From assembly GCA_965368975.1 (NCBI GenBank), contig CBDUPA010000012.1, positions 83,540 to 147,539 on the forward strand: a stretch of 64,000 nt of DNA. Direction: 5' to 3'. This DNA is from an uncultured bacterium. GTDB lineage: Bacteria > Acidobacteriota > Thermoanaerobaculia > Multivoradales > JAHZIX01. The position numbers were made by a program, and so were the translations under genes. Shown one piece after another: positions 5,251 to 47,200 of this stretch. Within the stretch, counting starts at the first letter, position 1, and every line of letters starts with the position of its first letter. The notes beneath the pieces are model-generated. The model was not told the origin of the DNA. It made no database searches and saw nothing but the letters and a program-made list of their open reading frames with translations.

Positions 5251-5301
5251 GCGTCGTCTTCCTCAACTCCCCGGAAGCTGGCCACAGTCTCCAGCTCGCC
5301 G

Positions 5302-5607
5302 CTAGGCGGCGCTCTCGGCGGCCATCGCGGGTGCAGCGGCCGTCGCAGGTTCAGCAGTGGACGCCGTTCCCGCGTTCTTCAGAATCAGGTCGACGGCATC
5401 CTGGATCGTGCGCAACTGCTGCAGCCGTTCCTCCGGCAGCCCCAGCTGGAAGGCGTAGTCGATGTCGATGCCGATCTCGAGCAGCGACAGGGAGTCGAGG
5501 TCGAGATCGTCGAGAAACGAATCCTGATCGCCGATGGTTTCGGGGTCGATGCTGGTGATGCTGGCAATGATCTCTTTGACCTTGCTCCGAACTTCAGTTA
5601 CGTCCAT
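5302..5607 (-). CDS. acyl carrier protein
   Basis: DLDLDSLSLLE phosphopantetheine attachment motif; start chosen at MDVTEV with GAGGAGAA RBS 6 nt upstream; ORF-track start at 5640 rejected. Confidence 0.8.
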   Translation of the reverse strand: MDVTEVRSKVKEIIASITSIDPETIGDQDSFLDDLDLDSLSLLEIGIDIDYAFQLGLPEERLQQLRTIQDAVDLILKNAGTASTAEPATAAAPAMAAESAA

Positions 5608-5808
5608 AGCAATTCTCCTCAGCCGGTTCCCGGGCCACATGGCCCACAGCGGGCACTCCGCAGAAGTCTCTTGCAGAGAAGGTGCTGAATACTACCAATT
5701 GCTGAAGGTTTGTGGTAGTCGGTTGACGGGATGACGTCGGACCAGGCGTCAGCCAGCCGGTGGACGCCAACCAGGGGACACCCGCCGCGCGCGCCGCGCG
5801 CACTGTGA

Positions 5809-6120
5809 TCACAGCTGTCTCCGGTCGAGTTGCAGGGCCACGGCTACCACCCGCACGACCAGTTGCACCCGACTATTGACCGCTAGCTTGCGGTAGATGC
5901 GTTCGAGATAGGTGTGCACGGTGTGCGGCGAGATACCCAAGTGCTGCGCGATGGTGATCTCCTTGCCATCGTCGAAGACGCCGCGCACAATCTGGAGCTC
6001 CCGCGGCGACAGCGCCAAGATCTCGGCCAACTCGTTCCACTGCGCGATGGAAAAGATCTCGTGACCCTCTGGCTCCCAAGGCTGCGATGGGTCAGGTAGG
6101 ACCCTCTGTGCCTTGGCCAT
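5809..6120 (-). CDS. LuxR-family HTH transcriptional regulator (C-terminal LuxR/GerE domain)
   Basis: LSPRELQIVRGVFDDGKEITIAQHLGISPHTVHTYLERIYRKL matches the LuxR-type HTH; divergent from the TIR-STAND gene. Confidence 0.75.
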   Translation of the reverse strand: MAKAQRVLPDPSQPWEPEGHEIFSIAQWNELAEILALSPRELQIVRGVFDDGKEITIAQHLGISPHTVHTYLERIYRKLAVNSRVQLVVRVVAVALQLDRRQL

Positions 6121-6441
6121 GTCTCCCTCCTCTCGATGCTGCCGACTTAGTTGAGACCAGGACCTGCCAAGGAAATAAATATCAGTCTTTCTTTAATCTT
6201 ATAGCAAGACGGATCTCTGTCGAAGTCCCCCGGCCAGACGTCGGCTCTCCAGGGGGCATTTGCATGTGGTCGCATCTACTAGATCCGAGCCCACACTGCG
6301 GTGCCGGGGGCTGCGCCCTCCGGCCCGGTCCCTCGGCGGATCGAGCGTCGCCCCCAGCGAACTGTGTGGACCACATCCCAGACCGTCTCCGCTACAATCC
6401 CCTCGACCCTTCGCCACTTTTCGCAACCGGGGGATTGCTGC

Positions 6442-9306
6442 ATGCCCGAGCCGCTGTCTGTTTTTATTTCCTACTCACAAAAAGACGAGGCCTACCGTGA
6501 GGCTTTCGTCACGCACTGCGCCACGTTGCAGCAGCAAGGCTGGATCGATGCCTGGCACGATGGCCTGATCCCAACTGGTGAGGAATGGGAAGATGCGATT
6601 CTGGGCAAGCTGCGGAGCGCTCAGTTCGTGATGTGCCTGGTGTCGGCGAACTCGCTGGCGTCGGAGTACTGCTGCAAAGAGCGCGACGATGCGTTGGCGC
6701 GCGGTAAGCAATGCCTGGTGATTCCAGTGATTCTGGACGACTGTGACTGGCAGGCTTCACCGTTCGGTCGGCTGCAAGCCTTGCCCAAGCAGGCGGCGAT
6801 TGTGCCGGTGGCACTGTGGGAGAACCAGAATAGCGGTTGGAACAGCGTCATCCAGAGTCTGCGGCAGCTGATCAGGGAATGGTTTCCCACTCGAGCGAAA
6901 CAGGCGGCCTGGCCGAAGCCCAAGGGGCAGGTTGACGTCAACATCCACCGCCTCCCCACTCCCGGCCCGACCTTCGTCGGCCGCACGGACGAACTCGCCC
7001 GCCTCGACGCTGCCTGGACGAATCCGGACGTCCGCATCTTCAGCGTCGTGGCCGCGGGTGGCTTCGGCAAGTCGGCGCTGGTGCACCGGTGGACGCAGCA
7101 GTTGCAGGCGGACGGCTGGCGGGGCGCGGAGCGGGTGTTTGCGTGGTCGTTCTACTCTCAGGGGACGGCGGAAGCCCCGCAAGCTGGAGAAAGAGGGTCT
7201 CGACGCACGGCGGCGTCGGGGGAGCCGTTCTTGATCGAGGCGTTGGAGTGGTTCGGATGGGAGGGAGGGATACCCGCTTCAGCGAACAAGAAGGGCGAAG
7301 TCCTCGCCGACCTCGTGGCATCGACACGCACGCTCCTGATCCTGGACGGCCTGGAACCACTGCAACAGAGCAGCGAACTCCCCGGCGAGGCGGGCCACCG
7401 ACTGCTCGACCCGGGGATCAAGGCGTTCTTGCGCCAGCTGGCGACGAGTAACGCCGAGGGATTGTGCGTGCTGACGACACGGCTGCAAGTTGCCGACCTG
7501 GCGTCGCGGGAGGCTTCGACGGCGCCGGTGCTGCGGTTGGAGAAGTTGGAGAAGGCGACGGGCGCGGCGTTGTTGGAGGCGGTGGGGGTGACGGGGCCTC
7601 GGAAGGAGCTGGAGCGGGTGAGCAAGGAGTTCGAGGGGCATGCGTTGACGTTGCAGCTCTTTGGGACCTACCTGGTGAGGTACCACGGCGGCGGCATCAA
7701 GCACCGGACGGAGGTGCCGTCGCTTGTGACCAAGAAGGGGTTCCAGAATCCGGTAGAACGGGTGTTCAAGGCGTACGTCGAGCAGATGACGCCGGAGCAG
7801 TTGCGGGTGTTGTTGCTGCTCGGGCTGTTCGACCGTCCCGCCGAGCCGGAGGCGGTGGAGGCGGTACGGGCGGAGCCGGCGATTGCGGGGCTGACGGAGG
7901 GGATCAGCGCGGCGGACGAGGAGGCGTGGGTGGATGCGGTTGTCGAGCTGGAAGACTTGGGGTTGTTGCGGCGGGAGGGAGGAGCCTTGGACGCTCACCC
8001 TCTGGTGCGCGAGAGCTTCGGCGCGCGGTTGCAGACGGAGCACGCGGAGGCGTGGCGACAGGGCAATCGGCGGCTGTACGAGTATTACCAGGCGTCGACG
8101 GACGAGTTCCCGGAGACGCTGGAGCAGATGCTGCCGCTGTACACGGCGGTGGTGCATGGGTGTCGGGCGGGGTTGGAGCAGGAGGCGCTGCACGAGGTGT
8201 TGTTCAAGCGCATCAAGCGGGCTAGCGAATTCTACAGCACCAAGAAGCTCGGCGCCTTCGGCTCGGAGCTGACGGCGTTAGCGGCGCTGTTCGAGCGGCC
8301 CTGGGACCGTCCCGCCGTCGCGCTGACGGCAGCGGCCCAGGCGTGGCTGCTCAACCAGGCCGCCTTCGTGCTGCGCGCCCTGGGGCGGCTGTCGGAGGCG
8401 GTGGCGCCGATGGAGGCGGCGCTGGAGCTCGGCATCAAGCAGGAGAACTGGAAAGCAGCCGCGACCCGTGCCAGCAACCTCAGCGAGCTGACGCTGACGC
8501 TGGGGCGGGTGGCGGATGCGGTCGAGTTCGGGGCGCGCGGCGTCGAGTTGGCGGATCGGAGTGGGGATGAGTTCCAACGCATGGGTAACCGCACCACCCA
8601 GGCCGACGCGCTGCACCAGGCCGGCGTAATCGAGGCCGAATCAGGCGACGCCAGCGCGGCGCGCTTCGCCGAGGCCGAAGCGCTGCAGGCGGAGCGGCAG
8701 CCGCAGTACCCGAAGCTGTACTCGGTTCAGGGCTACCAGTACTGCGACCTGCTGCTGACGCAGTGCGCGCGGGCTGTGGACGTCTCGGCCGTGGACCTCT
8801 CGGCGGGGGAGCGGGCGGAGAAGCTCGACGCGGTGCGGCAGCGGGCGGAGACGACGTTGGCGTGGTTGACCCAGGCAGGGAAAGACGTCCTATCTGTCGC
8901 CCTGGACCACCTGACGCTCGGCCGGGTCCACCTGGCCCTGGAGCAGGTGAGCGAAGCGGCCCTGGCGCTGGAGCGGGCGGTGGCGGGGCTGCGGCAGGCT
9001 GGACACGAGTGGTTTTTACCCGCTGGCCTGTTGGCCCGCGCCGCGCTGCACCGCCACACCGGCGACGGCACGTCCGCCCGCCGTGACCTCGACGAAGCGC
9101 TGGAGATCGCCGAGCGGGGATCGATGCGGCTGCACGAGGCGGATGCGCACCTGGAGTGGGCGCGGTTGTTGTTGTCGGAGGGGAAGGTCGAGGAGGCGCG
9201 GGGGCACGTGGCGGTGGCGCGGCGGATTGTGGACGAGACGGGGTATGGGCGGCGTCAGCCTGAGATTGCGGAATTAGAGGAAAGGTTGGCGGTAGGTTCT
9301 GGGTAG
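6442..9306 (+). CDS. TIR domain - STAND NTPase (NB-ARC/NACHT-like) - TPR repeat protein
   Basis: N-terminal SVFISYSQKDEAYREAF TIR-like; Walker A VVAAGGFGKSAL; Walker B LLILDGLEP; C-terminal TPR-like helical repeats; start moved to ATG 6442 (MPEPLSVF) with GGGGGA RBS. Confidence 0.8.
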   Translation: MPEPLSVFISYSQKDEAYREAFVTHCATLQQQGWIDAWHDGLIPTGEEWEDAILGKLRSAQFVMCLVSANSLASEYCCKERDDALARGKQCLVIPVILDDCDWQASPFGRLQALPKQAAIVPVALWENQNSGWNSVIQSLRQLIREWFPTRAKQAAWPKPKGQVDVNIHRLPTPGPTFVGRTDELARLDAAWTNPDVRIFSVVAAGGFGKSALVHRWTQQLQADGWRGAERVFAWSFYSQGTAEAPQAGERGSRRTAASGEPFLIEALEWFGWEGGIPASANKKGEVLADLVASTRTLLILDGLEPLQQSSELPGEAGHRLLDPGIKAFLRQLATSNAEGLCVLTTRLQVADLASREASTAPVLRLEKLEKATGAALLEAVGVTGPRKELERVSKEFEGHALTLQLFGTYLVRYHGGGIKHRTEVPSLVTKKGFQNPVERVFKAYVEQMTPEQLRVLLLLGLFDRPAEPEAVEAVRAEPAIAGLTEGISAADEEAWVDAVVELEDLGLLRREGGALDAHPLVRESFGARLQTEHAEAWRQGNRRLYEYYQASTDEFPETLEQMLPLYTAVVHGCRAGLEQEALHEVLFKRIKRASEFYSTKKLGAFGSELTALAALFERPWDRPAVALTAAAQAWLLNQAAFVLRALGRLSEAVAPMEAALELGIKQENWKAAATRASNLSELTLTLGRVADAVEFGARGVELADRSGDEFQRMGNRTTQADALHQAGVIEAESGDASAARFAEAEALQAERQPQYPKLYSVQGYQYCDLLLTQCARAVDVSAVDLSAGERAEKLDAVRQRAETTLAWLTQAGKDVLSVALDHLTLGRVHLALEQVSEAALALERAVAGLRQAGHEWFLPAGLLARAALHRHTGDGTSARRDLDEALEIAERGSMRLHEADAHLEWARLLLSEGKVEEARGHVAVARRIVDETGYGRRQPEIAELEERLAVGSG

Positions 9307-9500
9307 GGGCGTCCCCATGTGGGCGCCCTGCGGCGGAACGCCGCATCCGGATCCGGATCCGGAGGGCGCAATGCCTTGCGCCCCTACGACCCTCCCGCCC
9401 CCCGAACGATACGCATGCGGGATGACATTACCGATGCGGACGTTCGGGGTCCCAGGTTTGACCCTCCTTCCACCCCGGTGATAGCGTCCAAACGACCCTA
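9306..9500. repeat. GC-rich palindromic repeat element, copy 1 (family with hairpin modules AGGGCGCAnnnnTGCGCCCCTAC and conserved CCGAACGTTACG core)
   Basis: Shares gggcgcaatgccttgcgcccctacgacc and ccgaacg(t/a)tacgcat blocks with the copies at 18172 and 19354. Confidence 0.6.
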
Positions 9501-18171: not shown

Positions 18172-18333
18172 GGGTTCCAGGGGGAGGGCGCAATGCCTTG
18201 CGCCCCTACGACCCGCGCCCCCGCCCGAACGTTACGCATTCGGGAGATCCACCAGGCCGCGGAGTTCGTGCCGTGCGTAGCGTTCGGGGGAAGGGTGGTT
18301 CCGTAGGGGCGCAGGGGTCTGCGCCCTCTGGTG
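18172..18333. repeat. GC-rich palindromic repeat element, copy 2
   Basis: agggcgcaatgccttgcgcccctacgacc ... ccgaacgttacgcat ... gtaggggcgcaggggtctgcgccct; terminal inverted hairpins. Confidence 0.6.
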
Positions 18334-19353: not shown

Positions 19354-19520
19354 GGGGAGCCCTCATCCGCCCCGGAGGGCGCAGACCCCTGCGCCCCTAC
19401 AGACCCGCGCCGCCGCCCGAACGTTACGTGGTCCGAATCGTTCATGCCGTGCGTTCCGTTCGGGGGTTGGGGTGGGTCGTAGGGGCGCAAGGCATTGCGC
19501 CCTGGGTGGTGGTTGGCTCC
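19354..19520. repeat. GC-rich palindromic repeat element, copy 3 (overlaps dusA 3' end)
   Basis: agggcgcagacccctgcgcccctacagacc ... ccgaacgttacg ... gtaggggcgcaaggcattgcgccct. Confidence 0.6.
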
Positions 19521-23351: not shown

Positions 23352-23624
23352 CCCCGCTGTCTCGGTCCTTCCGAGTCTAAACTGCTGAATCCCCCCCATC
23401 GTACTTCCCCATATGGCCCCGGGTGGCAGGCCCGGGGCCTCGACTTGCGTCAGTTACCGACCTCGACTACACTTTCGTCGATCCAGTAATATCTTTCCCG
23501 CAACCGGCTTGAATTCTGTCTTTCATGGATCACCGAATACTGGAAACGCCCGTGCGCTGTGATCCGCAGGGCGACTGTTGACGCATTGGCACCATGCTAC
23601 AGTGACCTAGGAGGACGAGACACC

Positions 23625-24902
23625 ATGACGGCATCCCATCCGGAACCGCTGCCGCTGACCTTGATTGCCGAGTATCTTGACGGATCCGCCGACGCCAACT
23701 CATTCTGGGACGATTGGGTGTCGGTTCTGCTGGAGAACCCGCGGTTCGCGGCCAGTTTCCACCGCCTCTTGGGGCTGAGCGAAGAGTTCAGCTTGCCGCA
23801 GCTGAGCCGGGTCGCCTACGAGGGCCCGGAGGCACGCGAGCTATTGCAGCGTCTGCGCTGCTTGCCGCCAGCGAGGCAGTGGCGCGAGGCACGCAATGCC
23901 AGTTGGGTGGTCAATTGGTGTTTGGTGCGCCTCTTGCTGCGAGAGAATCTCCGCATCACTCCGCAGGACGTGCACGAGGGCGGCCGCCTGGCGCGTTTGG
24001 CCCTGATGCTGGTGCGACGCTTGCCGGCTGCAGTCTACGGCACTGAGCGCTTGGCCGAACTGAGGGCACTGGCCTGGGCCAATCTGGCCAATGTCTATCG
24101 CGTGCGCGGTGATCTCAAGCAGGCCGACGCTCTCATGCAGCGTGCACTGCGTCGCCTCGGAGGAGAGCCGCTGCAAGAGCCCGGTCTGCGAGCGGATCTG
24201 CACCTGATTCAGGGTTCCATGCTCTACGATCAGCGGCAACTCGGTGCCGCCCGGATGGCCTTCGAGCAAGGCTTGAATCTCTGTCAGCACCCGCTTCGGC
24301 AAGAAACGGCCGCTATGCTTCAGATGCGGCTGGCCGCTCTGGACTACGAGGTGGCACACCTAGACAGTGCAATTGAGAGGACCGAGGCGGCCCTACGACT
24401 CATCGGCAAGTCTGGGGCTACGCGGCTCTTTGTGCAAGCGAGCTTCAATCTTGCGGATCTGTTTGCCCGAGCGGGCCGCTTCGACGAGGCGATGGCGCAG
24501 CTGTCTCAGCATCGGCAAGCCCTGCAAGTCTATGGGACGCCGAGTGATCAGTGCCGCGCCAACTGGTGCGAGGGGATCATCCACCAGGGGCTTGGCGAAT
24601 TTGGCGCGGCAGTGAAATGCTACGCGCGCGCAAAAAAAGCTTTCCTTTCTCTGGATTTGTGGTACGATGCAGCCATTGTCACGCTGGAGTTGGCTAGCTT
24701 ACTGCTCGAACACGGCAAAACAGCTGAAGTCAAGCAACTAGCGCTCGACACGCACAAGCTCTTTGAAATCCAGGACGTCGACCGCGAAGCTCTTGCAGCG
24801 CTAGAGCTCTTCCGCGAGGCAGCGACGCAGGAAGCCTTGTCGATCGAGATGCTGCAACGCATCGAAGCCGACTTCCGGCAAGCCTGCCGTGTCTCCGCTT
24901 AG
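23625..24902 (+). CDS. hypothetical TPR-like helical protein
   Basis: Start set to ATG 23625 (MTASHPEP) with GGAGGA RBS; TPR-like repeats (LANVYRVRGDLKQADALMQRAL etc.). Confidence 0.5.
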   Translation: MTASHPEPLPLTLIAEYLDGSADANSFWDDWVSVLLENPRFAASFHRLLGLSEEFSLPQLSRVAYEGPEARELLQRLRCLPPARQWREARNASWVVNWCLVRLLLRENLRITPQDVHEGGRLARLALMLVRRLPAAVYGTERLAELRALAWANLANVYRVRGDLKQADALMQRALRRLGGEPLQEPGLRADLHLIQGSMLYDQRQLGAARMAFEQGLNLCQHPLRQETAAMLQMRLAALDYEVAHLDSAIERTEAALRLIGKSGATRLFVQASFNLADLFARAGRFDEAMAQLSQHRQALQVYGTPSDQCRANWCEGIIHQGLGEFGAAVKCYARAKKAFLSLDLWYDAAIVTLELASLLLEHGKTAEVKQLALDTHKLFEIQDVDREALAALELFREAATQEALSIEMLQRIEADFRQACRVSA

Positions 24903-33591: not shown

Positions 33592-34695
33592 TTGGCTACC
33601 GGATCGGACCGTGAATCCGGTCCGGTAGCGGTACTCCTGAGCACCGTTTTCGCCCCATCGCCTGGGCAGCCCCCTGCCCCGGTATACACTAGAGGCGTGA
33701 AACAACCCGAGTCTCCGGAATCTGAGCATCCGGACCGTGATCCGGTCCCCGTACCGCCGGCTTCTCTGCAGGCTACTGCCGAGACGGAAGGCAACTACCC
33801 CGACCTGTACCTGGTTGCCGAGTGCGGCGAGCAGGATCAAGAGAAATTGGTGCGCGAACTGGTGGCCCCGATCGTGGCCGAGATCCGGGATCATCCGGAA
33901 CTCGAGTCGCTGTTCTTCGTGCGCATGAGCAAGCCTACCTGGCAAGTCCGCCTGCGTGTCGTCGGAGACTTGGAGTGGTTGCAGAACCGCTGCAGGCGCG
34001 TGATGTGCCTGCGTCTCGACGCCTTGCGCGGCCGGCGGGCGGTGCACGACTTCAGCCTGGGGCACTACGGGCGTGAGCTCGAGCGCTACGGCGGTGAAGG
34101 CGGCATGCGCATCGCCGAACAGCTGTACCACCACGACTCGCTCGCCTGCTTGGACCTGATCACCGCCGAGGCCCGCGGCCTGCTCGAACGTTCGCGGCGT
34201 GAGCTGGCGCTGCTCTACAGCGAGCGGCTGGCCAATCGGTTGGGCCTGCATGGCGAAGACCGCTCGCGCTTTTACCGCTACGGCTACCAGTGGACCTTCC
34301 AGACCGAGACCTGGGACCAGAGCGATGCCGACGCACTAGAAGAACGGTTCGAGCAACTGGAGGCCGGGCTGCGCTCCCTCTTTCCGCTGGGTGGCAAGGC
34401 ACCGCCCGAGACGGATCTCTGGGGCGGAGACGAGCCGGCGCGCGTTGGTGCCGGCCTGGCAGCGTCGCAAGAACCAGCGCTGGCACGGCTGCTCAAGGGG
34501 CACAGGGCGGGGCGCATCGGCGGTGATCTGGCCTACCTCGGCTGGTCCTACTGCCACCTCTTCTGCAACCGCCTGGGCATCGACCCGTCCGGCGAGGCGG
34601 TACAGCGCTACCTGATGCACCTGTACCACTACCGCGTCCGTGCCCAGGGCTCGCTGCCGGGGCCCTTGCTCACCGAAGCGGCCAGCGACACCTGA
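33592..34695 (+). CDS. stand-alone lanthipeptide dehydratase C-terminal (glutamate-elimination, SpaB_C / thiopeptide-type bacteriocin biosynthesis) domain protein; start uncertain
   Basis: LFFVRMSKPTWQVRLRV and GHYGRELERYGGEGG resemble the FxRY...HxRLR and ERYGG signatures of the LanB elimination domain; the ORF-track TTG start lies inside the hairpin, so the real start is probably downstream. Confidence 0.55.
   Translation: MATGSDRESGPVAVLLSTVFAPSPGQPPAPVYTRGVKQPESPESEHPDRDPVPVPPASLQATAETEGNYPDLYLVAECGEQDQEKLVRELVAPIVAEIRDHPELESLFFVRMSKPTWQVRLRVVGDLEWLQNRCRRVMCLRLDALRGRRAVHDFSLGHYGRELERYGGEGGMRIAEQLYHHDSLACLDLITAEARGLLERSRRELALLYSERLANRLGLHGEDRSRFYRYGYQWTFQTETWDQSDADALEERFEQLEAGLRSLFPLGGKAPPETDLWGGDEPARVGAGLAASQEPALARLLKGHRAGRIGGDLAYLGWSYCHLFCNRLGIDPSGEAVQRYLMHLYHYRVRAQGSLPGPLLTEAASDT
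33595..33629 (+). promoter_or_regulatory. GC-rich stem-loop directly after the precursor stop codon (possible attenuator setting precursor:enzyme stoichiometry)
   Basis: gctaccgga...tccggtagc 9-bp arms plus an inner ggaccg/cggtcc pair; no T-tract. Confidence 0.3.
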
Positions 34696-34698
34696 ACG

Positions 34699-37464
34699 AT
34701 GGGGGACGGCTACCCCCGAGAGGCGGACTGCTGGCAGAGAGGGCCCCGCATCGCCCTCCTACGACTGGCGTTGCAACCCTGGCAGCGTCTGCAGGCTCTG
34801 CGCGCCGACGCGACCGTCGGGCACCTGGCCGTGGCCCGCCAGGCACAGGCCGAGCTCGACGCCCTCGTGCCGACGCTCGAGGCCGCACTGTTCACCGCCG
34901 CCGGTCCCAAGCGTCCCGCCGCCGGTCCCGTGGAGGCAGCGCGACGCCTGGCGTGCGTCGCGCTACGGCGGGCGGTGCACAATGGTCGGGAGTTGGACGC
35001 CTCGACACTCGGGAGCAGTGACCGCGACGGTGATCTGCAAGGGCAGCTGCAGCGATATAGCGAGCTGAAGGCTACTGTCGAGCGTGCCCGTGCCGCGGCG
35101 TTGCAGGCCTGCCAGGCCGAGTTGCCGCGGGCACGTCAGCACGTTCTCGACGCCAGCGCTGAACCGCTCCAGGCGGCGGCGCTAGCACTGGTCAGCCGAT
35201 CGCTGTTCCGCCGGCTGCAGCGTCTGCAGGCCGCAGCCGCACCCCATACTCAGGCCCGCGACGCCCAGACCCACGATACGCGTCACACCGTCGCCAAACT
35301 GCTCGCCTACCTCGACCGTGCCGCCAGCAAGACCAGCCCCAACGGCCTTTTCTGCGCCACCGCCGTCGCAACCTGGGGCGAGCGCCTGAACGTCCACCGC
35401 CTCGCTACGCCGCCGCGTGTCGATCTGCGCCTCAACGTCACCGAAGCGCGCAAACTCACCGCCCACCTCGGCTTCGGCCCGCAGATGGATGCCCTCGTGC
35501 GACCCCGTGTCACCACGACGCTGCATCGCCAATCCGCGGAGTCCGGCGAAGTCCTGACCTTCTGGCGCACAGCCTCGCTGCGTCGACCTGAGGACGACGA
35601 AGCTCTCCAGCGCCTGGGCGCACAGCCGATCGTCGACCTCTTCGTGCAACTGGCGGATGGTCGTCGCTCCGTTCCCGAACTCCTCCTGGCCGTCGCCAGC
35701 GCGGCGGCAGAGCACGGCATGGAAGTCAGCGTCGAGCAATTGGAGCCCTTCTTCCGCCAGCTCGTCGACGCCGGCCTGCTGCACGCCGAGATCGAGCTGC
35801 CGTACGGCTGCGGCCGCCCCCTGCGCGCGTTTGCGCATCGAGTTGAGGAACCGGCTGTCGACGGGGCCCCAAGGATTGCCGAGCTCGAAGCCATCGAAGC
35901 CGACCTCGACGCCGTCAACGCCACGCCCATCGAGGCCGCCGCTGCCGTCCGTCTGCCCGCCATCCTCGACGACCTGGCACGGCGTCTCGACGCCCAGGCA
36001 GCCACCCTGCCCGAACTGGCCCGGCCGCTCGTGCGCGATGAACTCTTCCGTCTCGACGCGGCCCTCGACGCGGCACCCGGTCGGCAAACCACCCTGCCGT
36101 GTCCCTGGCGCGACGCCCTGCAGCCCACCGTCGACGGCTACGCGCGCCTGTTCGCCTCGATGTACCCGTCGTCAAACTATCGTCAGCGCCTGGCGTCCGC
36201 CTTCCTGGAGCACTGGCCCGCGGACACCGACATCCCCCTGCTCGACCTCTACCATCACTTCCAACCACCACCCCCGGATTCCCGCGTACTCGACTTCCCG
36301 TGCCCGAGCAGCGATGTCGATAGCCAGCCGTACCAAGCCTGGCAGCAAGCCCGCGCCCTGCTCGTCGAGCTGGCCAGACAGGCCAGGGCGGCCGGGGAGC
36401 ACGAAGTCCGTCTCGACGACACCGCCTGGCATGCCTTGACGCATCCGCTTTCCGACCCAACCGGTCCTTCTGAGACGCTGAAGTGGACCGCCGGCGTTCT
36501 CTTCCAGCCCGTGCTCGCCAGTTCCGCGAACCGAAAGCAGCAGAACCGGCTCGTCCTCAACGCCCTCTTCTCGGGCACCGGCGTTGCCTTCGCCCGCTTT
36601 GCCGACCTGCACCCCGAAGTCGAGCCTGAGCTGCGCCGGCAACTCCGTGCCTCGGACTCTGCCGAAACCGCCCAAGTCCCCATCGTCGCCGAGCTGACCT
36701 ACAACCACTGGGGCCGCACCGCCAACGCCGGCCTGCGTCCACGACTCCACGAGTGGGAACTCGAACTCCCCGGTGACCGCGCCTCCGATGCTGGCTACGC
36801 CGCTGGCAAGGTCCTCACCCTCGCCGACCTCACCCTGCGCTACGACTCCACCGAGCAGCGCTTCCACCTGCGTCGCATCCAAGACGGTCGCCAGGTCCTC
36901 CCCGTTCTGTCGAGCGGCGTCAGCCCCGAAGGCCTGGTGGCGCTGCTGGTGGCGATCGGGCGTCAAGAGCAGCAGCCCCTTGGTCTGCTCCCCGGCTTCG
37001 CCTGGCCGGAAGAAGAGCTGGAACAAGACTTCCCAGACGGCGTTGAGACCTGGCCCCGCTTCGTCCGAGCTGTTTCTTCGGAGGCAGGCACTGACGAGAT
37101 CGACCTCGAAATCGTCCTCTGGCGCCGCCGCTGGCGCTTCCCCCGCGCCACCATTCCCAAACCCCCAAAGTCCCGCCCCGGCGACGACGCTGACCTCCAC
37201 CTCGCTACCTACTTCGCAGCCGTCGACACCTGGCGCCACCACCACCTCCTTCCTCGCCACATCTACCTCCACACCGCCACCGTCCGCAAGCCCACCCACG
37301 TCGATCTCGAATCCCCCCTCCACGTCGAGCTGCTGCGTCGACGCCTGGCGTCAGAGAAGGGAGATGTCTACGTCACCGAAGCGCTGCCGGGGCCAGAGGG
37401 TCTGTGGTGGGGCGGTGGAGACGAGCGCTCGAACGTCGAGGTGCTGGTGCAGTTGGGGGTGTGA
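34699..37464 (+). CDS. lanthipeptide dehydratase N-terminal (tRNA-Glu-dependent glutamylation) domain protein
   Basis: LLAYLDRAASKTSPNGLFCATAVATWGE corresponds to the R-TPFGLF-GV hallmark of LanB N-domains (compare NisB RSTTRATPFGLFSGV); 921 aa matches that domain size; 3-nt gap to upstream gene. Confidence 0.6.
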   Translation: MGDGYPREADCWQRGPRIALLRLALQPWQRLQALRADATVGHLAVARQAQAELDALVPTLEAALFTAAGPKRPAAGPVEAARRLACVALRRAVHNGRELDASTLGSSDRDGDLQGQLQRYSELKATVERARAAALQACQAELPRARQHVLDASAEPLQAAALALVSRSLFRRLQRLQAAAAPHTQARDAQTHDTRHTVAKLLAYLDRAASKTSPNGLFCATAVATWGERLNVHRLATPPRVDLRLNVTEARKLTAHLGFGPQMDALVRPRVTTTLHRQSAESGEVLTFWRTASLRRPEDDEALQRLGAQPIVDLFVQLADGRRSVPELLLAVASAAAEHGMEVSVEQLEPFFRQLVDAGLLHAEIELPYGCGRPLRAFAHRVEEPAVDGAPRIAELEAIEADLDAVNATPIEAAAAVRLPAILDDLARRLDAQAATLPELARPLVRDELFRLDAALDAAPGRQTTLPCPWRDALQPTVDGYARLFASMYPSSNYRQRLASAFLEHWPADTDIPLLDLYHHFQPPPPDSRVLDFPCPSSDVDSQPYQAWQQARALLVELARQARAAGEHEVRLDDTAWHALTHPLSDPTGPSETLKWTAGVLFQPVLASSANRKQQNRLVLNALFSGTGVAFARFADLHPEVEPELRRQLRASDSAETAQVPIVAELTYNHWGRTANAGLRPRLHEWELELPGDRASDAGYAAGKVLTLADLTLRYDSTEQRFHLRRIQDGRQVLPVLSSGVSPEGLVALLVAIGRQEQQPLGLLPGFAWPEEELEQDFPDGVETWPRFVRAVSSEAGTDEIDLEIVLWRRRWRFPRATIPKPPKSRPGDDADLHLATYFAAVDTWRHHHLLPRHIYLHTATVRKPTHVDLESPLHVELLRRRLASEKGDVYVTEALPGPEGLWWGGGDERSNVEVLVQLGV

Positions 37465-40362: not shown

Positions 40363-40408
40363 AGCTCGAGGCCGGTCCGAAAACAAAAGCAAAATTGCGA
40401 GGTTGAAC

Positions 40409-43400
40409 ATGGCCAGAGATCGTAAGTTGATCGTCGAAGAACTCCTGACCAAGCCCAGCGGCGTGTGTCCGATGCTGTTCGTTGGTATGGGAGGAGCGGG
40501 TTGCAGGATGGTGGAGCGGATCGCCGGTCATCTCCGAGGTCGACCGGATTATAAAGAACGCTTCAAAGATCTGGTCAAGTTCGCCATGATCGACAGCAAT
40601 GTCAATGATCTGGAAGGGTATCGAGAAGTGGCCAATGCAACCTTCCTGATCAGTGACTTCGAGAAGGAGGAGTACGCCAATCTGGCCTCTGGCAAGAAGT
40701 TCCTGGAACCGCAGCAGTACTTTACACAGTGGGTGCCGTCGGACTATCGCTTCCGCTCCGGAGATACCTCGGGGGCTGGCCAGATTCGCATCGAATCTCG
40801 TCTGGGTGTTTACTACCAGATGAAGCACAAACAATTCGTGCCCAGATTCCGCAGTCTCTTGGAGAGTCTGAAGTCGCACGAGAACGGACATCGGAGGTTG
40901 GACTCCGACGAGATCCGGATCGTACTCTGCTATTCCGTCGCCGGCGGAACCGGCTCCGGTTGTCATCTGCCAGTGGCCTATATGTTGCGGGATCAGGCCG
41001 ACGACCTGGGCAAGCCGACTTTGATCGGTGTTGCGGTGTTGCCGGCGGTCTTCGAGGACAAGGTCGGCGTCAATAAGGATGGTGTTTTTGCCAACGGTTA
41101 TGCAGCTCTGAAGGAAACCGAGCATTTGATGAAGCTCGGTGCCCCGGATTCTCGGTTCTTTCCCGAGAAGGGGATCGAGTTTCACTACAACCCCGCCGAT
41201 GAATCGAAGCGAACGGTTCACGCGCGTCCCTTCGACTTCCTTTATCTGATCGACAAACCCGAGTCGTTCAGCGTTCCCGAGCCGGTGGATGCTGCGGCGG
41301 ACGGACTCTATCTGCAGTTCTTCTCGCCCCTCTACGGGGCCCAGCTCTCCGACTACGACAACTACACGCAGTACCAGAGGTTCTTGGTACCGGAAGACTT
41401 CGAAGAGGGAGGCATTCCGGGCTTCTCGACCTTCTATGGCTCCTACGGTTGCGCAGTGCTCCTGGTGCCGGTTCCCGGCCTGGTGGAGTATTGCAGCCAG
41501 GCTGCCGCCCTGGCGTTGATTCGGGCCAGCTTCATGGGGGATATCCCAGCGGATCCGATGTACGAGCCCTTGCGCATCGACAGCGACCGCTTCTATGAAG
41601 TCAAGGAGCGCGACGACGAGGATGCGCAGCTCTTCCAGGCTGCGGATATCCCCAGTCAGCCTCAGAAAGAGCGTCGCCGAAGGTTGTTCGATCGGCTTTT
41701 TGCCAAGCGGGTGCGCCTGCTGGCGGCGTGTGAGTACCGGGCTGACCGCGACGGCCGGTTCCGCGGCATCTTCCGGCACGGCCACTATCTCGGAACCATC
41801 CCGAAGCTCGACGGTAGCGCCGTCATGGACATGGAGCGGTTCGACGAAGAGGCCGAGCGCGAGCGCGAGCTGGTCGGTGGCAAGCTCAGCGTTTCGATCG
41901 GCGGCATCATCCTGCCCGCCTTGGTCGGACTGCCGGGGGACGACCCCGGACTCCTGCAACGGGCGCACCAAGCGATCAAGAACTTCAAGGTCGACAAGCC
42001 GCGTCGTGACATGCGGGTCAACGAACTACGAGCGCGCGGCGACGCGTGGCGGACGATGTTGAGGGATGAGGGGCGTCAACGCCTGCGCGATGGCTACAGC
42101 GATGGCACGGTGCAGGTGCCTGGCATGGAGAGCCTGGTGCAAATGGACTTCCTGCGCCGGGAGGCGGGAGAGGTCGAGCTGGCGGCCAAGCGCTACGCGG
42201 TGCTCTCTCTGCTCGACGCGGTGGATTGGGAACAAGCGCCGGAAGACGAGGCCGAGTCCAACTTCGATGTCCAGGAGAAGAAGCCCACGGCCAAGGCCGA
42301 CGATGCCTTGATCGAGCACGTAATCAACCAGGCTCGGGATCTGGCCTTCCGCGACATCCGCCGCGAGTTCCTGTCCCAATTGGGCGAGTTGCGCGAGGCG
42401 CTGGAGAGCATCGCCGACGAGATGCGGGAGCTGGAGCAGGGGTCGACCAACCTGGAGCGCGAGTACGGTCGTCGCCTGGAGCGCCTGCAGTTCCAGGGCG
42501 AGGAGTCGGCCAATCAGTACATCCTGGACGCCGAGGCGTTGCAAGGGGAAGACAATCGACGCTTCTGGGACTTCTACTTCGAGGACAAAATCGCAGCTCT
42601 GCCCGAGTTGTCGCTGAGCAATGCTCGCGTGCAACAAATCCTGAGTGACACCGTCATCGAGCTATCGCAGCGTACGGGCCGCAGCACGAGCACGTCACGC
42701 CTGGAGAAACTGTTCACCGCGTTGCGCAAGTATGCCCAGGACTTCCTCGACAAGCGGATCGGCGGTGATCGTCACTCACCGGACCTGGAACGTCGCGAAG
42801 GGTTGACGCTGTCGGATGCGCTGGAGCTGGAGATCACCTACCGAGCGCTCTATCGCAGCTACGCCGAAGCGATCCAGGGGCAGGGGGACAAGGTCATTCG
42901 TCGCATTCTCTCCGAATACCGCGCCCTGCCCGACGAGAAGCAGATCGATTTCGCGGAGCCCAAGCACCAGGACTATCTGCGCGACAAGATCAAGCGGGTA
43001 GTGCAGGAGAAGGCATCCCTGCTCTGTGTCTACAACCACTCACGCGATCAGCATGGTGGCGTGCGGCCAAACCATATCTTCCTGGCCGCGATTGATGAGA
43101 ACTTCAAGAACAGCAACATCGAACAGGCGCTGAAAGATGCCGACATCGATGATCTCAAGTGGGTGTCCGGCAGCTGGCACAACGCCAAAGAGATCGTCTT
43201 CTACCGCGCGGTGTTGAATGTTCCGCTTTACACCTTCGGTCGGCTCGACCAGATGAAGCACCACTATGAAAGCTTCCGCAGTCTGAGGCGGCGCTCGAAG
43301 GTGCTGCACATCGACAAGAACTGGGAGGGTGACCAGCTCTGTGACCTGGATCCGGGCACGCTCAAAGAAGTGCATCGTCAACTAACCGTGCGCGACCAGA

Positions 43401-44278
43401 TCATCAACTTCACCTCGCTGCTGAGCAGCAAGCATCCGCGCATCGATGAGAAGGGGGCTACCTGCATCTTGCGTCGGCGCGGGCGCTACTATCTGCTGGA
43501 TCCGACCCTCAGCAAGATACCCGATGAGCACGATCCTGGTTCGACCTTGTTGGGCGACGCCCTGGCCCGAGCCATCGAACGCTTGCCCGAGGTGCTCGAT
43601 GCCGAGCGCGTGAACTTCAGCGAGTACCGGGATTCGCTGCACGGTGTACGCAATGGCATGGCCCCGTGGCTGCTGGGCAAGATCTGCAGGTTACCTTTCC
43701 AGTGGCGCCTGCAATACGAAGATTTGAGCAACCACTATGGGCATCAGCGTTCGATCGAGCAGCAAGAGATTCTGCGTGATCTGAAAAACTCCTACGAGAA
43801 GCTCAATGAAGCGCTGGACTCTCTGCTCGCGGAACTGCGCAATCGTCGACTCGAGAGTCGGACCCGCAAGGAGGACTTCACGGTCTACGCTCGCCGCTTG
43901 ACCGCCCAGCAGGCCAAGGATGCACTGGATCAGAGCATCAAGGTGCTGGCCAACTACAGCGAGGCCTGGAGCAAGGTCGAGGACAGCTCGCAGGTCCCGG
44001 ATACCCCCGAGTCGTTCGTGGATCTCTTCCAGCCTCTGGACCATGGCAAGTTGCAGAGCATGCTCGACAAGTTGCACAAGCCGATCCTTGATGACGATGA
44101 TGACGATGAGGAAGGCGATGGCCCCGGCCCAGCCAAGCCCCCAGCGGAGCCGGTCAAGCGCCCAGCGGAGCCAGACAAGCCCTCAGCGGAGCCAGACAAA
44201 GACTCGGCGGAGCCAGACGAAGACTCTGCCACTGAAGAGCCTTCGGAACCAGATCCCACTGAAACCGAAGGGTCATGA
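40409..44278 (+). CDS. tubulin/FtsZ-superfamily GTPase with about 800-aa coiled-coil and acidic-repeat C-terminal extension
   Basis: G-box MLFVGMGGAGCRMV; tubulin signature SVAGGTGSGCHLPV; ATG 40409 with GAGG RBS (ORF-track TTG 40403 also possible). Confidence 0.75.
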   Translation: MARDRKLIVEELLTKPSGVCPMLFVGMGGAGCRMVERIAGHLRGRPDYKERFKDLVKFAMIDSNVNDLEGYREVANATFLISDFEKEEYANLASGKKFLEPQQYFTQWVPSDYRFRSGDTSGAGQIRIESRLGVYYQMKHKQFVPRFRSLLESLKSHENGHRRLDSDEIRIVLCYSVAGGTGSGCHLPVAYMLRDQADDLGKPTLIGVAVLPAVFEDKVGVNKDGVFANGYAALKETEHLMKLGAPDSRFFPEKGIEFHYNPADESKRTVHARPFDFLYLIDKPESFSVPEPVDAAADGLYLQFFSPLYGAQLSDYDNYTQYQRFLVPEDFEEGGIPGFSTFYGSYGCAVLLVPVPGLVEYCSQAAALALIRASFMGDIPADPMYEPLRIDSDRFYEVKERDDEDAQLFQAADIPSQPQKERRRRLFDRLFAKRVRLLAACEYRADRDGRFRGIFRHGHYLGTIPKLDGSAVMDMERFDEEAERERELVGGKLSVSIGGIILPALVGLPGDDPGLLQRAHQAIKNFKVDKPRRDMRVNELRARGDAWRTMLRDEGRQRLRDGYSDGTVQVPGMESLVQMDFLRREAGEVELAAKRYAVLSLLDAVDWEQAPEDEAESNFDVQEKKPTAKADDALIEHVINQARDLAFRDIRREFLSQLGELREALESIADEMRELEQGSTNLEREYGRRLERLQFQGEESANQYILDAEALQGEDNRRFWDFYFEDKIAALPELSLSNARVQQILSDTVIELSQRTGRSTSTSRLEKLFTALRKYAQDFLDKRIGGDRHSPDLERREGLTLSDALELEITYRALYRSYAEAIQGQGDKVIRRILSEYRALPDEKQIDFAEPKHQDYLRDKIKRVVQEKASLLCVYNHSRDQHGGVRPNHIFLAAIDENFKNSNIEQALKDADIDDLKWVSGSWHNAKEIVFYRAVLNVPLYTFGRLDQMKHHYESFRSLRRRSKVLHIDKNWEGDQLCDLDPGTLKEVHRQLTVRDQIINFTSLLSSKHPRIDEKGATCILRRRGRYYLLDPTLSKIPDEHDPGSTLLGDALARAIERLPEVLDAERVNFSEYRDSLHGVRNGMAPWLLGKICRLPFQWRLQYEDLSNHYGHQRSIEQQEILRDLKNSYEKLNEALDSLLAELRNRRLESRTRKEDFTVYARRLTAQQAKDALDQSIKVLANYSEAWSKVEDSSQVPDTPESFVDLFQPLDHGKLQSMLDKLHKPILDDDDDDEEGDGPGPAKPPAEPVKRPAEPDKPSAEPDKDSAEPDEDSATEEPSEPDPTETEGS
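44138..44226 (+). repeat. four tandem 21-nt coding repeats (PAEPVKR/PAEPDKP/SAEPDKD/SAEPDED) at the C-terminus of the FtsZ-like protein
   Basis: cc(c/t)cagcggagcc(g/a)g(t/a)caa(g/a) units repeated head-to-tail. Confidence 0.5.
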
Positions 44279-47200
44279 CCAACCTGGTGTATCCGGCTCC
44301 GGGTATCGTTGTGGGCGTTGGCCGCTTTGGGCTGGCGGTCCTCGAAAAGCTCGGCGAGGATTGGCAACAGCTGAAGCTATCGGGGGCCGGGCCGTCGTGC
44401 GAGAACCTACGCCTGTTTTGGGTCCATCCAGAGCAGGACGACGAGGGCTGTTGGCGGGAAATCGAGCTGCCCGAGCTGAACACCGCCAATTACAGTGAAG
44501 ATGGCGACTGGCCGTCGATCGTGCTCGACTTCGTGCTCTTGCGCACCATGGGATTGATCCGCTATCGCCATGGCATCTACCAGGTGGCTTCGCCGCGCGA
44601 TTGCGGCCCGGTGCGAACGGCCGATCTCGAGTATCCGGAGACCAAAGACAAAGAAGATCCTGAAGCAGAAGAAGCCAAGAAGGATCGCGAAGAAGATAAG
44701 CGACTGGTGCGCCGCCGCTTCTTCGACTGGCTCGACCTGGCTCCCGACCCCGTCGAGGCCGCGGAGCGACTGAAGAAGAAGGCCGAGCGTGAGCCGGTAT
44801 TGCACCTCTTCATCTCTCCCTTGCTGCACCGGGTGCGGCAGGGCCACAGCCCGTGGATCTTGATGGCTGCGATCCTGCGCTGTAGTTGCTTGCGCGCCGG
44901 TCGAGACCCTTCGCCGTGGCGCTGGGTTCGCGAACAGGAGGCGCAAGGCAAGATCGACCAGGAGGCCATCCAGACGGTATGCGAGGACCGTGACAGGTTT
45001 CTCGACCGTTTCGCGCCAGCACCCCTGAAGCCCTCACCACAGCCCGAGGTCGATGAGGGGGAAGTCGAGGGGAGAAAGACGGACGTCTGGAAGTTCGAAG
45101 AGACGGAGATCGTCATTCCCAAGATCTTTCGGCCCCAGGAGGGAGATCCGGAGCCGCCGATCGATACCTTTCACCTGCTGCGTGAGAACTGGCAGGTATC
45201 CGGCTGGGCGACCGATCTCGAGACGCAGAAACAGCAGGGTTTCAAACCGCTGCAGGTGAGCCATTTCCGCCTGGGTCTTTTTGACCACTGTCAACACCGG
45301 GAGTCGAGAGAGCCCGAGTTGACAAAGGCCTTCGAGAAGCGACTCAAGTGCACGTCCAGGCTCTTGCATCGGGGGCTGGTTCGGTTGTGGGTCGATCTCA
45401 AGCGCGAGCAGGTAGAAGAGCAGGCTCTCGCCACCGGTGAGCGCCGCCATCGCCTGCTCGATGAAGCACTACAGCAAAGCTTGAAGATCCTGGAGAAGTT
45501 GGTCGTGGATCCGCTGAAGGACGCTCCCGGCAAGGAGAAAGAGGGCGAGTGCTTGAGCGATCTCTTGCGCTGTCCGGTCGACTTGCCGGACCAGCCGACC
45601 CAGTTTCTGCGCAACCAGTGCTTCGATCCTGACTCGCGGTGGTTGCGGGACAGCGCCTTGGAACGACGCCTGGTAGCTCTCGGGCTGGGAGACCCGTGGC
45701 GCGCCGCGCCGCGACGGCGGGGATTGTTCCAGGAGGTGATCCTCGAGAAGCAAGCCGAGGGCGGCTGCGCTCCAGGCGAGAGCGATGATCGCCCCCGATG
45801 CACGGAGATCGCCAAAGAGCCCAAGTCCGCTGGCGAAGGCCGGGGTCGATTCCGCAAGCAGCTGAACCAGACGGTCCGAGAGTTGTTGGACTTTTCCTAC
45901 CTGGGAAGGTACCGCGAGCGCTTGACTCGCACACCGCCACGTCTGACGGTCTTTGTCGTCGGTGACATGAGCGAGCCCTTTACGCGCATCAAGATGCAGC
46001 AAGTCCTCAAGGACGTTCACTCGGAACTGCTGCGGGCCTTCAGCTCCGTGTTCGAACTGAACCGGGATGGCTTCGATCGTGCCTTGTCCGTCATGCCGAT
46101 TCTCTGGATGCCGCATCCGGCGGATCCGTTCGGTGGTGAGGAGCCACTGAAGACACGCCTGGAGGAGGCGGTGATCATCGATGCGGTGCACGGTATTCGA
46201 CGCTGGGTCGAGGCGGTGTTACCCGGTGCGCGGCGCCGGATCTCGCAGATTTTCATCAACAGCAGGGTCACGGACAACGCGGTCTTGAGCATGGACGACA
46301 GCGTCAACCAGACGCGCGACTTCCTATCCTTCCAACTGCGCAATGACCTATCGCGCGATGACTGGCTGCGTCGGACCGCGGTGGGTCCGGGGGGCGACGA
46401 CTACTTCGCCTCGTTCGCCTGCTGCGAGATCGAGTTCCCGGCGGAGAGGGCGCGCGAATACCTGGCCAATCGCATCGCTCGCGACTGCTTGCGTCAGCTG
46501 CAGGTGGAAGCTGAATGGCGGGGGCGCGAGGCGGTCAAGGTACCCGATCCCTCATCCATGGAAGAGCTGGTCGGAGAGGCGAGTTCGCGTCTGCAGCAGG
46601 AGACGGAAAGGGAGGCGAAGGGTCTGACGGACGCCATCTGGAATGCCCTGCCGCAGGGCGAGAGCTCCCGGCGCTGCATGCCGCGCAAGGAGATCCTGAG
46701 CCACTTCTCGGAGCGTTTCGAAAGCCGACTGTGGGCGGACATCACGCGACTGTGGCGACAGCTGACCCAGCGTCGAGGTCACATGGATGACTTTGTCGAT
46801 TCCTTGCGACACCAGATCTCCCGGCAGCTGCATGGTGCGCTGCCCGACATCCGGCGTCAGAGTGACGACGAGGTGTACCAGGCCAGTGGGCAAGGTATCC
46901 AGGCGGCACTCTCGCGCCTGCAGGAACGCCGCTGGCAAGCCTTCAAGCAGCTGCAGGAGGCGGAGGAAGAACGTCTCCAGGCCGAGGAGGCCTGCCAGCA
47001 GAATCAGCGGCCGAACCGTGGCAGGCTGTCGCGGGCCCGTCTGGCAGTCACGGAGGCAGCGAAAGCCAAGCCGGATTGTGGTCCGCAGCGCTTCGGTCTT
47101 CTCGCCTGGGGCCTGTTGGCTCCGATCACCGCGGTGTTGCCCGCTCGTTTGTTGGAGTCCGAACTGGGCTGGTGGGCGTTGCCTTTGGTGATTGTTTTGC

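Follow-up and report, generated by a model that had tools for sequence, protein, structure and literature searches.

The Avs/AVAST proteins (Avs1-5; Avs7-21, PMC13581612) are single chains in which an effector is joined to a STAND NTPase and a large TPR-like sensor. The bNACHT proteins (10.1101/2022.07.19.500537) follow the same effector-NTPase-sensor logic, and the plant TNLs (Roq1, RPP1, ADR2) place a TIR domain before an NB-ARC-type NTPase. TIR-II of E. coli is a validated antiphage system of TIR and TPR, about 30% of its relatives have an ATPase domain, and all 12 of the 12 TIR systems tested protect via cell death or growth arrest (PMC11350192). The NTP-dependent conflict systems of multicellular prokaryotes combine STAND or related NTPases with swappable effectors (TIR, nucleases, PNP) and repeat sensors (PMC7159879, PMC8195603). 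Here we analyzed a gene of this general architecture in a 64,000-nt stretch of DNA (the window) from an uncultured bacterium of the Acidobacteriota (contig CBDUPA010000012.1, positions 83,540 to 147,539). The TIR-STAND-TPR gene, at 6442..9306 (+), encodes 954 amino acids (aa) plus a TAG stop and was delimited from its open reading frame (ORF), public gene calls, domain searches, an AlphaFold2 (AF2) model and Foldseek. We think it probable that the product is a single-chain NLR-like immune (conflict) sensor, in which a TPR-triggered STAND switch would set off an NAD+-cleaving TIR domain, that the effector cassette has been replaced, and that the LuxR gene next to it is incidental. Systems of this kind have been described before, and the gene opens no new category.

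The TIR-STAND-TPR protein and its counterparts

The gene lies within an ORF at 6301..9306 (+). Its start at ATG 6442 is backed by the N-terminal alignment of family members at the same Met, and a Shine-Dalgarno-like GGGGGA stands 7 nt 5' of this codon. Public gene calls contain an identical 954-aa product on a 247-kb contig. Read from the N-terminus, the domain order is TIR, STAND NTPase, TPR array. This is the architecture given in the preliminary description of the sequence, and Pfam, profile alignments, the AF2 model and Foldseek agree with it; the two motifs quoted there were also located, GGFGKS at residues 206-211 (7057-7074) and LLILDGLEP at residues 298-306 (7333-7359). In Pfam, TPR_12 at residues 634-704 exceeds the cut-off and AAA_16 at residues 177-358 falls under it (21.7 bits vs 32.6). 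The AF2 model, computed with the family alignment as input, reached a pLDDT of 86.3 and a pTM of 0.71. Whole-protein phmmer against the PDB gave no useful match, while domain-level and profile searches did. A scan of the window found no paralogue of the gene. From these data we infer that the window copy is an intact single-gene NLR-like "sensor-switch-killer" protein.

The TIR effector domain, of a ThsB1-like subtype, is encoded at 6442..6891 (+) and covers aa 1-150, including a helical extension at aa 126-147. Pfam TIR_2 (PF13676) matches residues 7-112 with an E value of 9.9e-17 (62 bits vs the 28-bit cut-off) and is also matched by 50 of 50 relatives. The PADLOC ThsB1 model PDLC00420 covers aa 6-166, that is, the TIR and its helical extension, at E 2e-31. 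The AF2 model has the alternating beta-alpha arrangement of a flavodoxin-like fold (strands at 5-10, 35-39, 62-67 and 92-97; helices at 13-31, 49-59 and 75-87), with pLDDT values of 80-90 over these elements, and the family TIR profile matches 22 solved TIR structures at E<=1e-3.

The codon at 6679..6681 (+) encodes Glu80, the glutamate at the catalytic position. It belongs to the aromatic-x3-Glu motif that opens helix C, Y76-C-C-K-E80, with the canonical aromatic+4 spacing. When the TIR domain alone was used in phmmer, Glu80 came to lie opposite the Glu of Cat1 'WCWDE', AbTir 'WTNYE' and RPS4 'WCVRE'; this residue is established as the catalytic one in AbTir, RPS4, Cat1 and SARM1-type TIRs. 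A MAFFT alignment of 50 sequences places Arg81 of the window protein in the conserved Glu column, with Glu80 one position earlier, and the family TIR profile meets the same Glu of plant TIRs only via a one-residue deletion. The offset comes from one residue that is inserted in most family members (aromatic+5) and absent from the window protein and its closest relative ('YCCKER'; aromatic+4); a Glu is found in column 80 or 81 in 50 of 50 members. An inactive TIR, which Arg81 in the Glu column might suggest, was ruled out on the pairwise alignments of Glu80, the one-residue indel and the 'YCCKER' of the closest relative. The TIR fold and a Glu at the catalytic position, on which the preliminary description had made its reading depend, are thus both present, since TIR_2 lies above its cut-off and Glu80 aligns with the Glu of solved TIRs.

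The STAND switch follows a low-confidence linker (6892..6966, +; aa 151-175), in which pLDDT drops below 50 at aa 151-161. The nucleotide-binding domain (NBD; 6967..7521, +; aa 176-360) holds Walker A at 7057-7074, Walker B at 7333-7359 and the putative sensor-1 'TTR' at 7474-7482, and the helical and winged-helix domains (HD-WHD; 7522..8106, +; aa 361-555) hold 'GHAL' at 7636-7647 and the MHD-like 'DAHPLVR' at 7990-8010. Across the 50 sequences of the family alignment, G206, G207, G209, K210, D302 and E305 (Walker A GGxGK[ST], Walker B DGxEP) and T345, T346 and R347 of 'TTR' are invariant. H400 of 'GHAL' (residues 399-402) is kept in 49 of the 50, and D517, H519, P520, L521 and R523 of 'DxHPLVR' (residues 517-523) are kept in all. 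From their position and general knowledge of NB-ARC motifs, we take 'TTR' to correspond to RNBS-B/sensor-1, 'GHAL' to GLPL and 'DAHPLVR' to MHD.

In Foldseek searches of the PDB, the best match of the AF2 model was the STAND-TPR protein 6mfv (E 9.5e-13, 801 aligned columns), along with Apaf-1 (3sfz, 3.4e-8; 1z6t, 2.4e-7), RPP1 (5e-8), Avs3 (8dgc, 4e-7), CED-4 (2a5y, 3e-6) and the NRC2/3/4 resistosomes. The model therefore has the NBD-HD-WHD fold common to Apaf-1, CED-4 and NLRs. It superposed on the inactive-state structures 1z6t and 3sfz with a root-mean-square deviation of about 9 Å, against 19-29 Å for active oligomers, and this better fit suggests that the model represents a closed resting state. 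The family profile is collinear with Roq1 (6-219), ADR2 (7-302) and RPP1 (6-223), from the TIR into the NB-ARC. Neither Pfam NB-ARC (PF00931) nor NACHT (PF05729) exceeded its threshold in the window protein, the sole NTPase match being the sub-threshold AAA_16; in 50 relatives AAA_16 was found in 40, with weak matches to NACHT in 21 (best 1.3e-7) and to NB-ARC in 4 (best 1.6e-4). Among annotated plasmid proteins, those nearest to the NBD come from cyanobacteria, are named 'NB-ARC domain-containing' and share about 26% identity with it.

The C-terminal part (8107..9303, +; aa 556-954) is a TPR-like alpha-solenoid of about 10-11 helical hairpins and the putative sensor. Pfam TPR_12 and TPR_2 fall in this region, TPR_MalT is matched in 25 of 50 relatives, the hairpins of the AF2 model have pLDDT values mostly above 90, and Foldseek returned TPR proteins of the LGN/Pins type for the C-terminus.

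Judged by its architecture, the protein would work like a receptor of the Avs/NLR type. It shares with Avs the single chain of effector, STAND NTPase and large TPR-like sensor, the swapping of effectors on a conserved chassis and the Foldseek match to Avs3 (8dgc, E 4e-7); unlike Avs, this family is found mainly in environmental phyla, with little defence-island signal. The bNACHT proteins are alike in their effector-NTPase-sensor logic, in the NACHT-like Walker B DGxE and in the sub-threshold NACHT matches of 21 of 50 relatives, whereas 'TTR', the HPL/MHD-like motifs and the fold matches to Apaf-1 and CED-4 point to the AP-ATPase side. The NLR/Avs-like reading of the preliminary description gains support from the family-wide swapping of toxic N-terminal effector domains that is described below, but membership in a named Avs or bNACHT group does not follow from the PADLOC search, where matches were confined to models of effector domains (ThsB1, SAVED_TIR, bSEFIR and the TIR part of PDC-S66).

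The likeness to plant TNLs consists of a TIR followed by an NB-ARC-type NTPase, collinear over 210-300 residues, with Walker A and, judged by position, a putative sensor-1 'TTR' and an MHD-like His in common. However, their sensor is made of leucine-rich repeats and a C-JID, while here it is an all-helical TPR solenoid; their Walker B reads DDVW and that of the window protein DGxEP (NACHT-like), Pfam NB-ARC is not reached, and the EDS1-type downstream pathway is absent from bacteria. TIR-II, as published, resembles the protein as a single-protein TIR and TPR defence; the tested E. coli protein is without a STAND module, and TIR-ATPase-TPR forms are reported from the wider family around it. Type I Thoeris has a TIR of the ThsB1 subtype in common with the window protein (PDLC00420), but the gene lies between LuxR and FHA-GGDEF genes with no ThsA or other Ths effector gene adjacent, and its TIR is fused to a sensor-switch of its own. 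The archaeal protein 6mfv has an NTPase and a TPR sensor in the closed conformation, and the TPR_MalT-like repeats also recall the regulators MalT and AfsR; sequence similarity to these three is limited to the TPR repeats, none of them has a TIR or toxic effector, and MalT and AfsR have DNA-binding outputs. The NTP-dependent conflict systems are alike in parts list and in their environmental, complex bacterial hosts, but they are often multi-gene with adaptors, while here we found a single gene with a conserved sensor and detected no Death-like or adaptor domains.

Family spread and exchange of the effector cassette

A word-indexed search returned at least 2,696 matches, many of them full-length at 42-53% identity, and an exhaustive search of 1.84 billion representatives returned 2,744 clusters at E<=1e-30, a number that rose to 15,203 at E<=1e-10. 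At least 582 stretches were confirmed among 600 scanned in species-representative genomes. The scan of genome contigs gave no relatives with the single protein as query and succeeded with the family alignment. Hosts include Acidobacteriota, Chloroflexota, Planctomycetota, Bacteroidota, Myxococcota, Desulfobacterota, Nitrospinota and methanogenic archaea, and several genomes hold two family copies. The family is thus very large, extends over many bacterial phyla and some archaea, and is apparently uncharacterised; its patchy phyletic pattern resembles that left by horizontal gene transfer and indicates horizontal spread.

Within the family, the TIR has a mean pairwise identity of 0.40, against 0.60 in the NBD, 0.53 in the HD-WHD and 0.59 in the TPR region. 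The conserved chassis comprises residues ~150-950 (STAND and TPR), and the N-terminus is exchangeable: in 27 of the 120 best matches another module precedes the body, with the junction at about residue 130-170, and in 2 of these 120 the TIR is C-terminal instead. The modules found in its place by Pfam were HNH (2e-13), SLFN_AlbA_2 with HATPase_c_4 (1e-12), TIR with PNP_UDP_1 (8e-21), SEFIR (2e-12), a distinct type of TIR and, as a weak match, Mrr_cat_2; the same swapping was seen among library representatives of the family. Immune or conflict STANDs typically show such swapping at the N-terminus. The exchange of toxic effectors on an NTPase-sensor chassis has been described as a hallmark of NTP-dependent conflict systems (PMC7159879), and STAND clades in which at least 50% of the members bear such effectors have been classed as defence STANDs (PMC13581612), a class into which the present family would fall by its predicted effectors.

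On plasmid pREB8 of Acaryochloris marina (NC_009933.1, 46718-57146), a 365-aa gene holds the closest plasmid relative of the window TIR, at 48% identity. It lies between a 1,293-aa NB-ARC gene and a 671-aa TPR gene on the same strand, and the three genes together resemble the fused TIR-STAND-TPR in divided form.

The closest relative of the window copy is an orthologue (P0002); the samples that contain it also yielded a RecN about 91-93% identical to the window RecN, and the flanking housekeeping genes of the two lineages share 87-91% aa identity. Between the orthologue and the window copy, aa identity is 88% in the NBD, 91% in the HD-WHD and 82% in the TPR region, but 63% in the TIR. By the Nei-Gojobori method, the TIR (aa 1-150) has a proportion of synonymous differences (pS) of 0.72, a saturated synonymous divergence (dS ≈ 2.5) and a ratio of nonsynonymous to synonymous divergence (dN/dS) of 0.12, against a pS of 0.30, a dS of 0.38 and a dN/dS of 0.21 in the body (aa 176-659). 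The pS falls from 0.79 at aa 101-150 to 0.32 at aa 151-200, which puts the breakpoint at about codon 150. The GC content of third codon positions (GC3) changes likewise, with 0.73 in the TIR segment vs 0.87 in the body of the window gene and 0.63 vs 0.86 in the relative's gene.

The saturated synonymous divergence together with the foreign GC3 of the TIR segment therefore argues for a replaced effector cassette. The comparison indicates that the TIR modules of the two lineages share a much older ancestor than their chassis, and that recombination at the linker (about aa 150) exchanged the cassette after the window lineage and that of the closest sequenced relative had diverged. The linker at aa 151-175 is accordingly the inferred recombination boundary between cassette and chassis, and alternative effectors elsewhere in the family meet the body near it, at about aa 150-170. 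The TIR segment is still under purifying selection. Fast adaptive evolution of the TIR was rejected as an explanation, since a dN/dS of 0.12 with saturated dS denotes replacement and not positive selection.

In the relative's copy, the deletion of a single nucleotide causes a frameshift at about residue 660 (its nt ~2020-2026, equivalent to ~8400-8425 of the window). The deletion is identical in two assemblies (L095 and L096; Logan SRR16995658/9), and the sister-lineage orthologue is probably a pseudogene. This frameshift is consistent with a dispensable accessory gene.

Proposed function and alternatives

The mechanism that we propose is modelled on Avs proteins, bNACHT proteins, plant TNLs and Apaf-1. 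The resting protein would be a monomer in the closed state, with ADP probably bound and the MHD-like His519 keeping it closed. Autoinhibition would be relieved once the TPR solenoid binds a trigger, which would probably be a conserved protein encoded by a phage or another mobile element. Exchange of the nucleotide would then lead to oligomerisation via the NBD, and the oligomer would juxtapose TIR domains into composite active sites that cleave NAD+, whereupon the infected cell would arrest or die (abortive infection). TIRs in Avs and in standalone proteins have been treated as NAD+-depleting effectors (10.64898/2025.12.03.692087).

Several observations weigh against this proposal. The TPR region is as conserved as the NTPase (59% vs 60% mean pairwise identity), which would fit a conserved trigger but equally a non-immune ligand. 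Each pairwise alignment with a solved TIR is weak in itself (E 0.05-0.2), and the register of the Glu is one residue off that of most of the family. The ThsB1 subtype is one that produces signals, so NAD+ depletion may not be the sole possible chemistry. No full-length relative was found among viral contigs, phage records and plasmids, the plasmids giving partial matches only. About 8-10 of 128 immediate neighbours match any PADLOC model at 1e-8, a count of single hidden Markov model matches without a proper null, and a location within defence islands is not evident for the family. Finally, no PADLOC v2 model matches the STAND-TPR body in the window protein or in 50 relatives.

The main rival is a signal-generating TIR, which would make a nucleotide messenger (a cyclic ADP-ribose isomer, His-ADPR or a pRib-AMP-like compound) for an unlinked effector to execute, as in Thoeris ThsB and plant TNLs. 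The best PADLOC match is indeed type I Thoeris ThsB1 (E 2e-31, and up to 1e-56 in relatives), the plant TNLs that are collinear through TIR and NBD are signal producers, and the related Acaryochloris TIR sits in a multi-gene row of NB-ARC, TIR and TPR. We nevertheless consider it improbable, as no neighbour is conserved in 82 related loci, no ThsA/SLOG/Macro-type partner flanks the window gene, and sister members carry the toxic HNH, Mrr-like and PNP modules in the same slot, which points to a slot for terminal effectors; a survey of Thoeris also set aside Avs-type and standalone TIRs as likely NAD+ depleters (10.64898/2025.12.03.692087). The protein could instead be a non-immune STAND regulator of the MalT/AfsR type, whose TPR region senses an endogenous metabolite or stress and whose TIR is an adaptor or an NAD+ switch (dormancy, programmed death in aggregates). 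This would agree with the best fold match, 6mfv, an archaeal STAND-TPR protein without immune annotation, with the weak NCBIfam/Pfam similarity to AfsR, MalT and TPR_MalT, and with a TPR region that is highly conserved across phyla; the surroundings are housekeeping genes with a cyclic di-GMP cyclase adjoining, the defence-island association is weak, and comparative genomics ties such systems to bacteria of multicellular habit (PMC7159879). However, the protein has no DNA-binding output domain, the swapped N-terminal modules are nucleases, NADases and phosphorylases and no regulators, the family is scattered over the phyla in an HGT-like manner and reaches the archaea, and the gene is an accessory one at a synteny breakpoint, frameshifted in the sister lineage and with a replaced cassette; we rate this explanation somewhat below the first.

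The least probable of the three, to which we give a slim chance, is a two-gene module in which the LuxR protein represses or activates the TIR-STAND gene from a shared spacer. The standalone LuxR/GerE helix-turn-helix (HTH) gene (5809..6120, -; 103 aa; GerE E 1.9e-15) is divergent from the TIR-STAND gene, and the preliminary description had paired the two. The 321-bp spacer contains an AT-rich core and a sigma70-like promoter facing the LuxR gene (TCGACA-16-TAAGAT, minus strand 6223->6196, a putative assignment from a promoter scan), and some PADLOC HTH models associated with CARF/CasR weakly match the LuxR protein. The pairing did not hold across the family: tblastn with the LuxR protein against 82 related loci, with ~6 kb of flank each, gave a single match, about 5 kb from the family gene and so not adjacent. 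The genes next to the closest LuxR homologues (60-70% identical, 100-130 aa) are R-body, CotH, PEP-CTERM and pyruvate-dehydrogenase genes, and a STAND or TIR gene was among them in 0 of the 3 contexts examined. Moreover, the LuxR gene is co-directional with the ACP, acyltransferase and ABC1 genes downstream of it, and no clear palindromic operator was seen near the candidate -10 of the TIR-STAND gene. The LuxR gene is an incidental neighbour and not a conserved partner of the TIR-STAND gene. The NLR-like immune sensor hence remains our preferred reading, with the signal-generating TIR as its main rival and the non-immune regulator and the LuxR-controlled module less likely.

A bolder version of the immune reading combines an unnamed STAND family of at least 2,700 clusters at 50% identity, spread over many phyla, a TIR-NBD that would come nearer than any other in prokaryotes to the collinear layout of plant TNLs (TIR, P-loop, 'TTR' and an MHD-like His), one conserved trigger for the unusually conserved TPR sensor, and a plug-in effector that is swapped at a fixed linker even between sister strains. 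On this view, the saturated dS and foreign GC3, which stop after the first ~150 codons, would have been left behind by such a swap. Taken as a whole, this version seems to us doubtful.

Neighbourhood, other loci and significance

Beyond the LuxR gene, on the minus strand, lie genes for an acyl carrier protein (ACP; PP-binding), an acyltransferase and an ABC1 kinase, and downstream of the TIR-STAND gene are an FHA-GGDEF cyclase, RecN and Sua5. The named best matches of RecN are all from Thermoanaerobaculia, at 63-66% identity (65% for the best one), and the highest non-sister match is at 69%; these matches place the host in the Thermoanaerobaculia. Membership of the LuxR gene in the co-directional ACP/lipid genes was considered and rejected: its homologues show no such synteny, and it is therefore a free-standing small regulator. 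When the flanking ORFs of the 82 loci were clustered all-against-all, no family occurred in more than 6 of them, and those most widely shared (up to 6 loci) were generic polyketide synthase or PAS-kinase genes. Since no neighbour is conserved, we regard the TIR-STAND-TPR gene as a single-gene module. The FHA-GGDEF-RecN-Sua5 block is kept in relatives while the sequence upstream of it differs, which places the gene at a synteny breakpoint; this position and the frameshifted sister copy point to the status of an accessory gene.

Domain and repeat searches bore out that the gene stands alone, with ACP/lipid genes on one side and a repeat element on the other. The housekeeping setting that had been described is true locally, but the contig also holds a defence-type operon (53802-63900) about 45 kb away, with a UvrD/GajB-like helicase (53802-55967, -), a DruE-like helicase of 2,165 aa (55964-62461, -; PADLOC DruE1, E 3.6e-99) and a Type IIG restriction-methyltransferase (62458-63900, -; E 3.9e-76), of which the C-terminal ~480 aa are included while the N-terminus lies beyond the window end.

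The divergent intergenic region (6121..6441) has a GC content of 60.4%, with a 76-bp core at 6140-6215 of 41% GC. The AT-richness proposed earlier for the promoter is only partly specific to it: the LuxR gene (61.5%) and the TIR-coding segment (59.8%) are equally low, so that the trough spans about 5300-6900 and not the promoter alone. TACAAT at 6393-6398, 44 nt upstream of the ATG, is shared with the upstream region of the relative (L095) and is a candidate -10 box of the TIR-STAND gene.

A nested GC-rich hairpin at 9303..9450 overlaps the stop codon and contains the inverted repeats GTAGGGGCG/CGCCCCTAC and others. It is possibly a transcript end or an assembly-breaking element; the contigs of the close relative break near the hairpin/repeat region downstream of the TIR-STAND gene. 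Five aligned copies of a ~55-nt REP-like repeat were found, at 9360-9425 (+), 18183-18245 (+), 18274-18328 (-), 19372-19428 (+) and 19442-19503 (-), the first of them inside this hairpin and those at 18.2-19.5 kb forming inverted pairs that flank genes. The core is a GGGCGCA-loop-TGCGCCC hairpin followed by CTACGACCC...CCCGAACG; the loop varies (ATGCCT, GACCCC) and the stem is kept in both variants. Rfam gave no match for the downstream repeat or for anything else in 5-21 kb.

Further along the window, a 447-aa TPR_MalT-like repeat protein without an NTPase domain (23559-24902, +) lies in a lower-GC stretch at 22-26 kb (GC 0.62-0.64). A split LanB-type lantibiotic dehydratase at 33592-37464 (+), with Lant_dehydr_C at 33592-34695 and Lant_dehydr_N at 34699-37464, suggests lanthipeptide or thiopeptide-like biosynthesis. 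Three tandem overlapping giant genes at 40403-52258 (+) have a GC3 of 0.76-0.77 vs ~0.87 for core genes; they encode 1,291 aa with an N-terminal Tubulin_2 (E 8.8e-41), 1,351 aa, and 1,315 aa with a weak DEAD-helicase region. No PADLOC match was obtained in any of the three and no Pfam match in the second (1,351 aa), and the trio is possibly an accessory or conflict cassette. A tRNA scan found none anywhere in the 64-kb window.

If the proposed function is true, the gene would represent a very abundant family of NLR-like receptors in soil and sediment phyla. Host phyla of the family (e.g., Acidobacteriota, Chloroflexota, Planctomycetota, Myxococcota and methanogenic archaea) are almost untouched by phage-defence experiments. 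As there is no PADLOC v2 model for the family, it probably escapes automated annotation of defence genes. The sensor is ~59% identical across phyla, from which a single conserved trigger is predicted. The sharp discontinuity of dS and GC3 at the TIR-linker boundary between the two close relatives would be a clean natural example of the replacement of an effector cassette on a fixed NLR chassis, a process otherwise usually inferred from surveys of domain architecture alone.

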